DNA of 64,000 nt from Escherichia phage A4. Positions 243 to 63,287 of this stretch are shown here, in pieces. The stretch is taken from the sequence record ON286972; one strand, given 5' to 3'. The first letter of the stretch is position 1; every line of letters starts with the position of its first letter. Position numbers and translations under genes: made by a program. The notes under the pieces are model-generated. The model made no database searches, had not been told where the DNA came from, and worked only from the letters and a program-made list of their open reading frames with translations.

Positions 243-1082
243 ATGAAATTAAATTTTATTATCAACTTTAATGTTAAAGAAACCGATCATTACGCATCAG
301 AAGATGACCGTGTTGCACCAGCTTCGTCTGAATACATCAGAAATGAAAATGTCCATATGCATGAAAATTATTTCGACTTTGGTAATTTTATTATCTACCG
401 TGGATTTAAGGATGTTGTATTCCGTTCCAGATATGAAGACTTTGAACATGCACTCATTGATGTACCGGATGAATTAGTATTCCAGTTCATGTTACTTGGT
501 ATTAAAGATTATGACTTTATAGTTTATAACCATTATACTAAGCGTATTATGATTGGTAATGATTCATATGATCTTACTTATTATTCCAGTACTGATGAAG
601 ATTTAGAAAATATTAAACGCCGTTCTGGTGGTATACGTAATTGTTCATCTTCAAACTCCAGTAGAATGAGTGAAAGGTTTTTTGATTTCAAAAATAGCAA
701 TAATAACGACTGTGAAGACGCGGACAATACTGAACATGTAATGTTTGAAATTGACCACAATAATGGATATAATGACTTCCTTAACGTTCTGAAGCCTTAT
801 ATCAATCATAAATTCGTCAAAGATGTAAATCTGGTGGCACGTGACTTACAGTACAGTGATCGTACTGGTGGTATGCCTGTACCAATGGATCGTGTATGTA
901 CGAACAATACAGTATTCAATGTCCCACGAGAAGATGTTGCATTTGTATTTCTGGCATTTTTGAATTCAGATGCACTATGGGACGATAATGAAAGACAATT
1001 TAGTTCAAGACATATTGAAATAATTCGTCAAAATACATTACTACTGTGGAAGAAATTTACTGAAAATACCCAGGACAAATAA
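243..1082 (+). CDS. Hypothetical protein (279 aa)
   Basis: Track ORF with ATG start; no recognisable motif. Confidence 0.6.
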   Translation: MKLNFIINFNVKETDHYASEDDRVAPASSEYIRNENVHMHENYFDFGNFIIYRGFKDVVFRSRYEDFEHALIDVPDELVFQFMLLGIKDYDFIVYNHYTKRIMIGNDSYDLTYYSSTDEDLENIKRRSGGIRNCSSSNSSRMSERFFDFKNSNNNDCEDADNTEHVMFEIDHNNGYNDFLNVLKPYINHKFVKDVNLVARDLQYSDRTGGMPVPMDRVCTNNTVFNVPREDVAFVFLAFLNSDALWDDNERQFSSRHIEIIRQNTLLLWKKFTENTQDK

Positions 1083-1090
1083 ATTCTTGG

Positions 1091-1099
1091 TGATATAAT
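1091..1099 (+). promoter_or_regulatory. Extended -10 element TGaTATAAT (candidate promoter for the downstream structured element)
   Basis: TGATATAAT about 85 nt upstream of the conserved block; no good -35. Confidence 0.35.
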
Positions 1100-1184
1100 G
1101 ATGAGTGGCAATATATCTTTGTCACTCTTTTTTTTTTAATCCTGAAAGGTTCCATATGGAAATGATTAAGAGCCTAATCCACTC

Positions 1185-1653
1185 GAAAATGTAGAGGGTA
1201 GATGAGTAGTCCTTTCAGTACGAACAGCAGATGAAACCCGTCAGATGTGGGCATATTATGAACCCCTCACGGCAATGCGGCTGTATAAAGAACTCCGATA
1301 AGCACACAGAGAGTTCCTAGATAGACATATAAGGATCGCACCTTACCAGATTTGCTAAGGGAGATTTCATTAGAAATTGCGGTCAACTATTTGTACAAGA
1401 TAGTTGCGTCCAAAATTTGGTGAAATCAAATACCAGTACTGTTCATATGGTACTCGTATTATGTGTCGGGATGTTTAAGACCGACGACCGTTGCTACAAG
1501 AACCGCGATAGAGAGAAACAGAGCAACCCGCTTTCGCCTCGTTAAGAGAATTCGTGATATGAAATATGTGAAGACCACCAGCGTCAAATTTTAATTCTTT
1601 CCCCCAGTGGGGGGATGAAATATGCTCTTCCAAACCTCGTCAATATTAATTAA
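1185..1653 (+). ncRNA. Candidate large structured non-coding RNA, copy 1 of 2
   Basis: No ORF of 60 aa or more; GC-enriched; conserved blocks shared with 61771-62334; hairpins with compensatory changes. Confidence 0.45.
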
Positions 1654-1776
1654 AACCATTTAGTACTATTAGAATTATTCAGAGCGTAGCGATGAATTAA
1701 TTCTACTGATGTTGATTGAGTGCTAACGAAATCAATATCGAGTACATTATTTGATGTTTCCTAAAAAGGAATAATA

Positions 1777-60922: not shown

Positions 60923-61279
60923 ATGAAATCAAAAATCTTTTTACCACAGTTAATGTGGCATCTTGCAGAGTTAGATGAAGATGATGTGTATACAGACTAT
61001 GGTGCATGGGATGACAGTACTGAAACCGTTGGTCCAGATGTGCAGTACAAAATCATTTGCAATGAAAGTAAAGGGCATAGACGATTTACTGAAGAATTTG
61101 ATCTTGTTTTTCTTGACATAAACGAGAACAAGTATTATCATTGTACGTATGAACGAGGTTTAACAGAATATCGACCACAACGACCATTCGAGTATGAAAC
61201 GGATGGTGTTAAGTGCAATGAAGTTTCTGTTACCAGAGAAGAAATTATCACTTATAGAACTTTGTGGAAATATGTGTAA
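60923..61279 (+). CDS. Hypothetical protein (118 aa)
   Basis: GGAG RBS. Confidence 0.5.
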   Translation: MKSKIFLPQLMWHLAELDEDDVYTDYGAWDDSTETVGPDVQYKIICNESKGHRRFTEEFDLVFLDINENKYYHCTYERGLTEYRPQRPFEYETDGVKCNEVSVTREEIITYRTLWKYV

Positions 61280-61677
61280 TGCTTAAAGATTTAGATTTTT
61301 CAAACTTAGAAATTGTTAGTGCTGTGAAAAATATCTCTGACATGGGAGACGAAAAGACAGTACTGTTAACTATTACATTTGTCAAAGAAGAAGATAGTTA
61401 TTTACATCTTACAGGTATTGAAGAACTAATTCATAAAACTAATCTACAAGATAATAGGAAGTATATTAAGCTTCAGGCTTCCTATACGAAAAAAACGTCA
61501 AATTTTGTAGACCTAAATAGTGTAGTCAAGGTGGTATTCAATCACCCTGAACAAAAGTACAGAAATGTGTCACGCAATGAGACAGATGCCAGTACTCTAC
61601 AGCTTCTTCAGGATATTGAGTTCATTGAAACAGTATTTGAACGAAGCAGCAAAGAATTGAAAAAAGTTTATATGTAA
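61279..61677 (+). CDS. Hypothetical protein
   Basis: Track ORF 61264-61677 trimmed to ATG 61279 (TAATG overlap). Confidence 0.45.
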   Translation: MLKDLDFSNLEIVSAVKNISDMGDEKTVLLTITFVKEEDSYLHLTGIEELIHKTNLQDNRKYIKLQASYTKKTSNFVDLNSVVKVVFNHPEQKYRNVSRNETDASTLQLLQDIEFIETVFERSSKELKKVYM

Positions 61678-61698
61678 TTGGGACAATACTTTATATTG

Positions 61699-61707
61699 TG
61701 CTATAAT
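61699..61707 (+). promoter_or_regulatory. Extended -10 element TGcTATAAT (candidate promoter for structured element copy 2)
   Basis: TGCTATAAT about 65 nt upstream of the conserved block; weak -35. Confidence 0.35.
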
Positions 61708-61770
61708 TATATTGTAATGGAAAATGTCAGTGGACGTTTTAACAACGGACAAGAAGAACCTACTTCTCTT

Positions 61771-62334
61771 GAAAATGTAAAGGATAGATGAGCCTTCCCA
61801 CTGAGGCGATGAGCAAAAGAAACCCGTTAGTACCATCCAAGTGCATTCATACAAACGCGAAATAAGACACGGATCACACGGCGACACGGCTCAATAAAGA
61901 ACTCCGATAAGCATACAGAGAGTTCCTCGATAGATGTATAAGGATCGCACCTTACCAGATTTGCTAAGGGAGTTTTACTTAAAACAAGCGGTCAATTTTT
62001 CTACGGGAAAGTTGCACCCAAAATTTGAGTAAAACGAGTACTGAATTGATCGAATAGTTCCAGTACTTTAGTGCAGGGGATGAAAATACCTGCGACCGTT
62101 GCATATGACTGCGATAGAGAGAAACAGAGCAACCCGCTTTCGTTCTCCAAAAATTGGACACCCTTGATCCGTCCAAAATATGGAGAAATTCGCAATTCGA
62201 TAAATTCCGATGCCATCAGCGTCAAAATCAAGAACCTTAATTGGTTCTTTTTTAATATCATTCCCCTGCGGGGGGATGAAAATGTCCTCAACAAATCCCG
62301 TCAATCTTTAAAAGTACAATACAATATTAATTAA
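61771..62334 (+). ncRNA. Candidate large structured non-coding RNA, copy 2 of 2
   Basis: Shares ordered conserved blocks with 1185-1653; embedded track ORFs are not conserved in copy 1. Confidence 0.45.
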
Positions 62335-62397
62335 TATGAATGAGTGAGTTATCGTAGATAACGAAACGAATTCTTGAGTTACGAGAGAACGAAGTGA

Positions 62398-62814
62398 ATG
62401 AGTAACGCAACGAATATTAAAAATTCATCTGATTTAACCAAAGAATTGTTTAAAAAGTTTTTTGAGTATCAAATCAATGAAGAGCATGGAATTAAACAGA
62501 ATTACATAAGTACAATAAAAACCAATAATATCCGAACTGAAATCTATGATAGTGTAATCGAATTTATTAATGCATTGAGTACTGAAAGACCTATAGTAGT
62601 TTTGTTTTTTAAACGAGATTATCCAGTACAAGTCAACAGGAATGTTCATTTCATTACAGAAAATGATTTAAGTACTTACACAACGAGTTCTCTTAGGAAT
62701 TGTATACTGATAGTATGTGATGACTCCGAGTATTATAGTAAAGTTGTATGGGATAGAAGACGTAATTCAGTAATAAGAGATATGAATCCCGAATTTACAT
62801 TTCTGATCAAATAA
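62398..62814 (+). CDS. Hypothetical protein (138 aa)
   Basis: Track ORF. Confidence 0.5.
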   Translation: MSNATNIKNSSDLTKELFKKFFEYQINEEHGIKQNYISTIKTNNIRTEIYDSVIEFINALSTERPIVVLFFKRDYPVQVNRNVHFITENDLSTYTTSSLRNCILIVCDDSEYYSKVVWDRRRNSVIRDMNPEFTFLIK

Positions 62815-62825
62815 ATAGACATAGA

Positions 62826-63287
62826 ATGACTCCCTGGAGAGATTTTATGGAAAATATTAACGACTTGCGACATGTTATGGACTTCATTGGCTGTACTGAA
62901 GAAGACAGTGCTTATGATGAAGTACTATTGACATTTATTGAAAACAGCATTATACTACCAGCAATTGCACATAGCTGGCATTTACAAAGTAAACACTACA
63001 CAAAACATCTACAATTAGATGAGTTGTATAAAGAGTTACCAGAATATGTCGATGCGTTCATTGAAGGCATTATGAACACTCGTGGTGCTTTACAAATTGG
63101 TACTGGACACAGTTATAAGTTCACACCAATTGAACAGTGTATTCCGATTCTTGAAGAATACTGTGAACAATGTAAGTACGTTCATGCTATGCTTGAAGAA
63201 GCTGAAGACTATGGCAGTACTAATACCCTTGAAGATATAATGAGTTTCATTGAGGGTACTTTATATAAACTTAAGTATCTTGAATAA
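62826..63287 (+). CDS. Hypothetical acidic protein (153 aa)
   Basis: Track ORF. Confidence 0.5.
   Translation: MTPWRDFMENINDLRHVMDFIGCTEEDSAYDEVLLTFIENSIILPAIAHSWHLQSKHYTKHLQLDELYKELPEYVDAFIEGIMNTRGALQIGTGHSYKFTPIEQCIPILEEYCEQCKYVHAMLEEAEDYGSTNTLEDIMSFIEGTLYKLKYLE

Follow-up and report, generated by a model that had tools for sequence, protein, structure and literature searches.

Two copies of a long repeat in Escherichia phage A4

The window analyzed here is a stretch of 64,000 nucleotides (nt) of DNA from Escherichia phage A4 (sequence record ON286972), and our subject is a long repeat that it carries twice on the + strand. Copy 1 lies downstream of an open reading frame (ORF) at positions 243-1082, and copy 2 is followed by a gene at 62398-62814. 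The two copies align at 76% identity over approximately 600 nt, with long identical blocks, and an nhmmer search found exactly these two copies in the window (E values of 1e-121 to 1e-190). Both are richer in guanine plus cytosine (GC) than their surroundings, with a GC content of 0.42 to 0.43 compared with 0.35 for the window. As detailed below, the repeats appear to belong to a new class of large structured RNA; the coordinates of their parts are compiled in Table 1.

Copy 2 is the longer of the two. From the first shared anchor, GAAAATGTA (position 1185 in copy 1 and 61771 in copy 2), to the motif CGTCAAT, copy 1 spans 460 nt and copy 2 spans 535 nt; the difference is thus 75 nt, whereas a previous inspection of the letters and ORFs of the window (the sequence-only reading) had put it at about 95 nt. 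From the predicted transcription start to the end of the 3' domain described below, the lengths are approximately 639 and 703 nt, respectively. The same reading had attributed the surplus to insertions between conserved blocks, and we located three of them, of 23, 32, and 23 nt (variable regions 1 to 3 in Table 1), which are slightly offset by two small deletions. The conserved 32-mer (1505-1536 and 62111-62142), the motif cagcgtcaaa (1579-1588 and 62217-62226), a 36-mer, and the other anchors were all found where they had been reported. The spacer between the 32-mer and cagcgtcaaa is indeed longer in copy 2, but it measures 42 versus 74 nt rather than 45 versus 70 nt. The extra hairpin agaacc-ttaatt-ggttct is present in copy 2 at 62231-62248, with TTTTTT directly on its 3' side.

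A conserved fold supported by covariation

About 100 copies of the element were gathered by exact-pattern scans of IMG/VR, metagenome contigs, and GTDB genomes with conserved blocks, to which annotated phage loci were added. When the DNA pattern was relaxed, IMG/VR yielded only 5 further true copies, along with some 20 matches by chance. The collection contained 65 unique full-length homologues with a median pairwise identity of 62%, which were aligned with MAFFT, blind to structure (alignment A2). From this alignment, RNAalifold predicted 51 pairs, 35 of which show compensatory change. A fuller nested model comprises 89 pairs in 19 helices (H1 to H19), and the following data support it. (i) In A2, 93.5% of the cells are paired, compared with 41 to 47% when the partners are slid. 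(ii) Compensatory change is seen at 52 of the 89 pairs. (iii) Double-compensatory cells number 768, versus 86 to 117 in the slid controls. (iv) The covariation score is 0.412, versus 0.065 to 0.088 in the controls, and none of 500 shuffles reached the observed values. (v) There are 634 G-U cells but only 147 A-C cells, and the pairing of 93.5% on the + strand would drop to 85.0% on the minus strand; the excess of G-U over A-C indicates an RNA on the + strand. Single-sequence folding gave z-scores of -2.9 and -3.4.

Contacts outside the nested model were found by mutual information and were selected post hoc, although we consider their signal unambiguous. The pseudoknot PK1 consists of six consecutive pairs between the loop of H11 and a strand just 3' of H14; each of the six is canonical in all 65 sequences and shows double changes. 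PK2 is a three-pair helix between the CAAUGC junction and GAUAGACAU, and a third nonnested contact is the single covarying pair 495-558. At the pseudoknot pairs, pairing reaches 99.4%. Copies 1 and 2 themselves differ in a compensatory manner in H2, H3, H4, H11, H12, H14, PK1, and PK2. Conservation also extends past CGUCA into a 3' domain, which is formed by a hairpin closed by GAAUU/AAUUC with the tip GA-AC-GNA-GU-GA and by a subsequent hairpin with a C-GNA-G triloop. Both hairpins recur in about 60 homologues with differing stem sequences, and the full RNA including this domain would measure some 640 to 700 nt.

The sequence-only reading had taken the insertions of copy 2 for peripheral helices of a structured RNA. 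In support of this notion, they fall in regions that vary in length throughout the family and fold as hairpins, while the core helices covary across the 65 homologues. The observation as a whole is thus confirmed and its structured-RNA interpretation supported; what had been overlooked is that the RNA has pseudoknots and a 3' domain, how large the family is, and that it extends to bacterial chromosomes. The hairpin and U-run of variable region 3 have the look of an intrinsic terminator, yet they are in all likelihood internal to the RNA rather than its end, because covarying pairs tie the sequence 3' of the insert to the core (A2 columns 553 to 555 with 727 to 729).

Several further features were noted in the alignment. 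The module UACAAUAUAGAUCCGUCCAAAAUU recurs at two peripheral positions, approximately 61995-62030 and 62150-62180 (A2 columns ~430 to 463 and ~605 to 640), in copy 2 in versions ending in GUUGCACCCAAAAUUUG and GAUCCGUCCAAAAUAUGG, and looks like a reusable structural unit. Two segments ending in CGUCA(A/G), at A2 columns 670 to 682 and 762 to 774 (62214-62227 and 62292-62304), vary in parallel family-wide (UU/CC, AA/GG, CC/GG); they may be alternative partners of one GAUG-type strand, that is, a switch, or may just reflect phylogenetic correlation.

An invariant hairpin, UUCCCC-UGCG-GGGGGG followed by AUGAAA (62258-62281 and 1596-1620), has the geometry of a type I-E repeat of clustered regularly interspaced short palindromic repeats (CRISPR). 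The element could accordingly be conceived as an RNA anti-CRISPR, a solitary-repeat decoy in which this hairpin mimics the repeat and traps Cas6e or Cascade. The 6-bp stem, the tetraloop, and the AUGAAA tail resemble the E. coli type I-E repeat, I-E systems occur in many hosts of RaK2-like phages, and Rfam returns weak matches to CRISPR-DR families. These matches, however, score 18 to 23 bits against thresholds of 39 to 40 and lie on the minus strand, the hairpin is a small part of a conserved fold of 650 nt, and its conservation is just as strong in phages that infect hosts with other repeats. A decoy role of the invariant hairpin is unsupported, and we regard this explanation as very improbable.

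Table 1. Predicted parts of the two repeat copies and neighboring features in the window
Feature	Position	Strand	Description
Copy 2 promoter	61678..61707	+	-35-like TTGGGACA, then extended -10 TGCTATAAT at 61699-61707; predicted start near 61714
Copy 2 5' leader	61714..61759	+	Variable hairpin 5' of the first conserved block (minimum free energy fold)
Copy 2 conserved core	61760..62305	+	19 nested helices (covariation)
Copy 2 H4	61810-61814/61889-61893	+	Nested core helix
Copy 2 H11	62037-62047/62056-62068	+	Nested core helix
Copy 2 H12	62071-62076/62090-62096	+	Nested core helix
Copy 2 H14	62110-62114/62190-62194	+	Nested core helix
Copy 2 H15	62117-62121/62137-62141	+	Nested core helix
Copy 2 H19	62258-62266/62271-62280	+	Nested core helix
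Copy 2 PK1	62050..62055/62195..62200	+	Pseudoknot, UCGAAU (H11 loop) with AUUCGA (covariation)
Copy 2 PK2	61884..61886/61935-61937	+	Tertiary helix, ACA with UGU (covariation)
Copy 2 variable region 1	61828..61876	+	+23 nt relative to copy 1; long form common to the GAP32, XbC2, and Serratia BF copies
Copy 2 variable region 2	62143..62216	+	+32 nt; hairpin UCUCCA...UGGAGA with inner stem UUGGAC/GUCCAA
Copy 2 variable region 3	62227..62269	+	+23 nt; hairpin 62230-62249 plus U-run
Copy 2 3' domain	62337..62416	+	Two hairpins, the second with the GA-AC-GNA-GU-GA tip motif
Spurious ORFs in copy 2	62071-62334 (+); 61979-62176, 62001-62294, 62068-62304 (-)		No family match; frame not conserved
Copy 1 promoter	1072..1099	+	-35-like AGGACA, then extended -10 TGATATAAT at 1091-1099; predicted start near 1106
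Terminator of upstream ORF 243-1082	1103..1137	+	Hairpin 1103-1127 plus T10; predicted start of copy 1 RNA within the 5' arm
Copy 1 conserved core	1174..1644	+	Covariation
Copy 1 PK1	1443-1448/1557-1562	+	UCAUAU:AUAUGA
Copy 1 PK2	1275-1277/1326-1328	+	AUG:CAU
Copy 1 3' domain	1672..1744	+	Two hairpins, the first with the tip GA-GC-GUA-GC-GA

Open reading frames within the element

Four ORFs overlap copy 2, one on the + strand and three on the minus strand, at the coordinates given in Table 1. They have no counterpart in copy 1, which contains no ORF of at least 60 amino acids on either strand, and none of the four matches a Pfam or PHROG family, whereas all six flanking ORFs tested match PHROGs. 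An ORF of at least 60 amino acids on the + strand is found in only 4 of the 65 homologues, and 8 of the 65 have an open frame in the homologous stretch. The ORFs of copy 2 are therefore spurious, as the sequence-only reading had supposed. A conserved small peptide starting from GGGGGGAUGAAA was also considered and rejected, since its frame is broken by 1-nt insertions or deletions between homologues.

These data bear on the view that the element is a protein-coding gene or acts at the DNA level as a packaging site, recombination hotspot, or mobile element. Hypothetical proteins annotated over it in some GenBank records speak for the former, and its multiple copies and, in bacteria, its position beside integrases speak for the latter. 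Yet its ORFs are neither conserved nor matched by any family, the asymmetry between G-U and A-C and the compensatory exchanges within hairpins and pseudoknots are hallmarks of an RNA, and the copies occupy conserved syntenic positions with no sign of recent mobility. Both versions are already largely refuted, and there is next to no chance that either is correct.

In many GenBank phage records, three to five overlapping "hypothetical proteins" are annotated over the RNA genes, while other records have none. The records concerned are those under our search hits H5, H11, H15 to H18, H21, and H22 (hit numbers, not helices) and others.

Promoters and stand-alone loci

The extended -10 motif TGnTATAAT is present exactly where it had been reported, 86 nt upstream of the first shared anchor in copy 1 and 64 nt upstream in copy 2. 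Across the window, the motif matches 15 times on both strands versus 8.3 expected, which is at most a modest enrichment. Its conservation among homologues is far more telling: an exact TGnTATAAT lies within 130 nt upstream in 49 of 63 homologues and a variant one base off in 12 more, while 0.019 matches are expected per stretch. It is usually preceded by a -35-like element, GGGACA or GAAACA. Between promoter and core, the homologues have a hairpin of varying sequence at the position of the 5' leader. The promoter of the copy 1 type lies between the stop codon of the upstream gene and its terminator, and orthologues are arranged alike with different stem sequences. Upstream transcripts would stop at this terminator, and the new RNA could not form the full terminator hairpin, because its predicted start lies within the 5' arm.

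In 17 phage loci, including that at 326639 of phage 121Q and that of Serratia phage BF, the RNA lies between the genes for endonuclease VII and a baseplate hub protein, both of which are encoded on the opposite strand. In Serratia phage BF, the RNA gene ends at its own bidirectional terminator. With both neighbors on the opposite strand, the RNA in these loci cannot be an untranslated region and would therefore be a stand-alone gene, as judged from gene order. The promoter found family-wide and the opposite-strand neighbors thus provide comparative support for the independent transcription that had been proposed from the two A4 copies.

The surroundings of copy 2 differ from this arrangement. 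The last hairpin of the RNA includes, in its 3' arm, the start codon of the next gene (ATG at 62398), and the product of this gene matches phrog_35272 from residue 1. In some homologues, the region of the GNA triloop reads GGAG some 9 to 12 nt before an ATG that abuts the hairpin, which hints at translational coupling in some paralogues. The second ORF downstream of copy 2 (62826-63287) belongs to DUF5856 and phrog_858 (starvation-inducible transcriptional regulator), and the ORF upstream of it (61264-61677) to DUF7325.

The element might instead be a cis-acting leader, that is, a very large attenuator, riboswitch, or processive antiterminator in the style of HK022 put or lambda nut, which would set the read-through of polymerase at the internal hairpin and U-run and at later terminators into downstream early genes. 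Like put and nut, it lies directly 3' of early-type promoters, is present in more than one copy per genome, and is followed by long codirectional operons at some loci. In most phage copies, a hairpin resembling an intrinsic terminator, with U7, is found after approximately 85% of the core, and a ribosome-binding site or an ATG is located in the last hairpin of some copies. A codirectional gene follows without an intervening terminator at copy 2 and at the loci that we term class B and class C, but this is not the case family-wide: no codirectional gene follows the RNA in the 17 phage loci and in 14 bacterial loci, where the neighbors are on the opposite strand. In addition, the terminator in Serratia phage BF closes the RNA gene, there is no U-run in copy 1 or in the bacterial copies, and the downstream genes are unrelated between the syntenic classes. 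Known put and nut elements, at about 70 nt or less, are also some 10 times smaller. The internal hairpin and the overlap with start codons thus favor a leader, whereas the stand-alone loci contradict it, and we consider this explanation unlikely. The reading of CCUCAACAAAUC as a boxA- or nut-like motif was rejected, as the motif is not conserved in bacterial copies.

Distribution in jumbo phages and bacterial islands

Both repeats match 60 to 71 phage records, all of which belong to the RaK2-like (Asteriusvirus-like) clade of jumbo phages. Matched members of this clade include Escherichia phages 121Q and PBECO4, Salmonella phages, Klebsiella phages RaK2 and K64-1, Cronobacter phage GAP32, Serratia phage BF, Erwinia and Yersinia phages, Pectobacterium phage CBB, and Xanthomonas phage XbC2, and RaK2-like genomes carry the element at two to five places each. 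Identity to phage 121Q is 88 to 92% for copy 1 (with the 121Q copy at 192762) and 79 to 81% for copy 2 (with that at 247461). Each copy is thus closer to its syntenic counterpart in 121Q than the two copies are to each other (76%), which indicates old paralogues at syntenic sites. Clustering by neighboring genes yielded four syntenic classes in phages, the largest of which consists of the 17 endonuclease VII/baseplate hub loci. A number of class B loci (L009, L011, L023, L027, L004, and L001), from several phage genera, have an ADP-ribosylglycohydrolase gene directly 3' of the RNA. The sigma factor gene RaK2 ORF244 adjoins one copy; a link to sigma factor genes was nevertheless rejected, as ORF 243-1082 of the window is not its homologue.

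The element is also found in the chromosomes of Serratia fonticola, Citrobacter amalonaticus, Enterobacter chinensis, Silvania, Buttiauxella, and 2 of 5,426 E. coli genomes, where it resides in low-GC islands as single-copy cargo. Fourteen bacterial loci share the same layout, namely, a serine recombinase or tyrosine integrase gene, the RNA, a convergent gene for a cI-like S24 repressor, and a Ner-like gene. A search of plasmids gave no match to the RNA. In these searches, the family is confined to RaK2-like phages infecting Enterobacterales and to the chromosomes of this order.

Two of the islands were inspected more closely. In E. coli LR-29-1 (locus L100, 15750-26650), a 10.6-kb island between ffs and ybaA carries the RNA together with an IS3-disrupted integrase gene, a resolvase gene, and genes for DUF488 and DuOB proteins that match the PADLOC candidate defense system PDC-M45. 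In S. fonticola GTA-SR07 (L096), the RNA lies beside tilS and two tandem rof genes, and the island also contains two ParB/RepB-like genes and a large serine recombinase gene.

Comparison with known RNAs

Neither the window nor five bacterial loci contained a match at gathering score to Rfam 15, including the models for RNase P, transfer-messenger RNA (tmRNA), 6S RNA, group I and II introns, GOLLD, ROOL, OLE, HEARO, int-alpA, and STAXI. Permissive scans (E values up to 10) of copy 2 and ten homologous loci gave no recurrent match inside the element. The motif ACGACCGUUGC...AACAGAGCAACCCGC looks by eye like part of E. coli M1 RNA, but RNase P was rejected because the element lacks a motif of the GGAAAGUCC type and none of the RNase P models matched it, even at E values as high as 10. 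A tmRNA or tRNA-like molecule was rejected on the basis of a negative ARAGORN result. Literature searches by topic and by sequence string retrieved no description of the family. In a survey of IMG/VR published in 2023, some 10,000 candidate viral RNAs without names were predicted (PMC10690425), among which the family could be present without having been singled out.

In several respects, the element resembles GOLLD and ROOL: it exceeds 500 nt, has many covarying helices and pseudoknots, is carried by phages and prophage-like islands, and has no dedicated protein gene beside it. This suggests a more specific version of a trans-acting RNA, namely, an ornate RNA that would assemble with itself into a multimeric particle of RNA only. 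GOLLD, ROOL, and OLE are described as forming homo-oligomers in cryo-electron microscopy (cryo-EM) structures (PMC12286853), which provides a precedent, and the size of the element and its many conserved junction nucleotides would suit such a particle. The differences are that the family has no covariance-model similarity to GOLLD, ROOL, or OLE, that it comprises two to five diverged paralogues per genome in phages of Enterobacterales hosts, and that it is not associated with tRNA genes, which frequently adjoin RNAs of the GOLLD and ROOL type. No tRNA gene was detected anywhere in the window, and among the loci listed ARAGORN detected tRNAs in a single one, more than 3 kb from the RNA. Self-assembly of this kind is, in our judgment, improbable.

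A second comparison is that with ColE1 RNA II, likewise a structured RNA, of about 550 nt, that is made by host polymerase from a constitutive sigma-70 promoter. In analogy to it or to the R-loop origins of T4, the element could be a replication-origin transcript that forms a persistent RNA-DNA hybrid and primes DNA synthesis; several copies would then correspond to several origins, and the islands would borrow the system. The size, the sigma-70 promoter, the conserved fold, the G-rich and C-rich runs near the 3' end, and the dispersed copies, all of which lie on one strand in 121Q, agree with such a role. On the other hand, the cumulative GC skew has no inflection at either copy, which is weak evidence since the skew is dominated by gene orientation. 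We noticed no iterons or DnaA boxes, for which no systematic search was made, and no antisense counterpart of RNA I or anything else pointing specifically to an antisense regulator. A constitutively transcribed origin would, moreover, be hazardous in a bacterial chromosome. We give little credence to this explanation.

Among RNAs of jumbo phages, a close parallel is with Pseudomonas phage PA5oct, related to the RaK2/121Q clade, in which transcriptome sequencing defined ncRNA001 to ncRNA004 as ORF-free transcribed regions of 236 to 619 nt, two of them very abundant throughout infection (PMC7318152). The region with ncRNA001 and ncRNA002 has no nhmmer match to our family, and these two RNAs, which the comparison covered, were rejected as homologues.

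Proposed function and significance

We are highly confident that the repeats belong to a family of separately promoted, pseudoknotted RNA genes of about 0.65 kb, whose copies are old syntenic paralogues that differ from each other in their peripheral helices. What these RNAs would do is a more tentative matter. Host sigma-70 RNA polymerase would transcribe each copy from its strong extended -10 promoter, and with a host-type promoter the RNA would be made once phage DNA enters the cell. The RNA folds into a compact pseudoknotted core, which has some 19 nested helices and three or more long-range contacts and precedes the two-hairpin 3' domain. The core is common to all paralogues, and the insertions of copy 2 represent peripheral helices that differ between them. 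This core may act in trans on a component that Enterobacterales share, as a scaffold or decoy that binds proteins or, conceivably, as a ribozyme, with the peripheral helices tuning each paralogue; for this part, our confidence ranges from somewhat below to about an even chance. Taken together, a separate gene per copy for a large trans-acting noncoding RNA is the best explanation overall, and we give it an even chance of being right.

Several points weigh against this explanation. (i) Covariation lends no support to H1 and H10, the long-range closing helices, which either do not vary at all or vary in one strand only. (ii) In copy 2 and several other copies, the RNA continues directly into the next gene, with its last hairpin overlapping the start codon, which fits a cis role for those copies. 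(iii) The internal terminator-like hairpin and U-run of most phage copies are left unexplained by a simple trans-acting RNA. (iv) No partner protein is shared: tblastn of the island ORFs against the phage loci returned only the spurious ORFs within the RNA and one weak ADP-ribosylglycohydrolase match. (v) The transcript and its ends, and with them all statements made here on expression, are deduced from comparison of sequences.

Bacteria and their phages have few large RNAs with complex folds, namely, those of the ribosome, RNase P, group I and II introns, tmRNA, OLE, GOLLD, and ROOL, and each of them is biochemically unusual. The present family may be a previously undescribed class, kept by RaK2-like phages as several specialized paralogues and carried also by integrative or defense-type islands of Enterobacterales, with an activity of its own that is deployed in phage-host conflict. 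This could be catalysis, self-assembly, or the capture of a core machine of the host (for example, the ribosome, RNA polymerase, or the degradosome); we advance this tentatively, at slightly less than even likelihood. A practical correction concerns the systematic overannotation of the RNA genes, over which dozens of GenBank phage records carry up to five false "hypothetical proteins." The family is present in culturable E. coli phages (121Q, PBECO4, phAPEC6, and Sharanji) and in the chromosomes of E. coli and Serratia, so that genetics, structure probing, and cryo-EM are directly feasible, unlike for many RNAs known from metagenomes only. Its occurrence as single-copy cargo of chromosomal integrative islands, one of which also encodes the candidate defense system PDC-M45, suggests a role in phage-host or phage-phage conflict. 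The old paralogues, the conserved strong early promoters, and the sharing of the family between virulent phages and integrative islands suggest that these RNAs serve in infection rather than in housekeeping.
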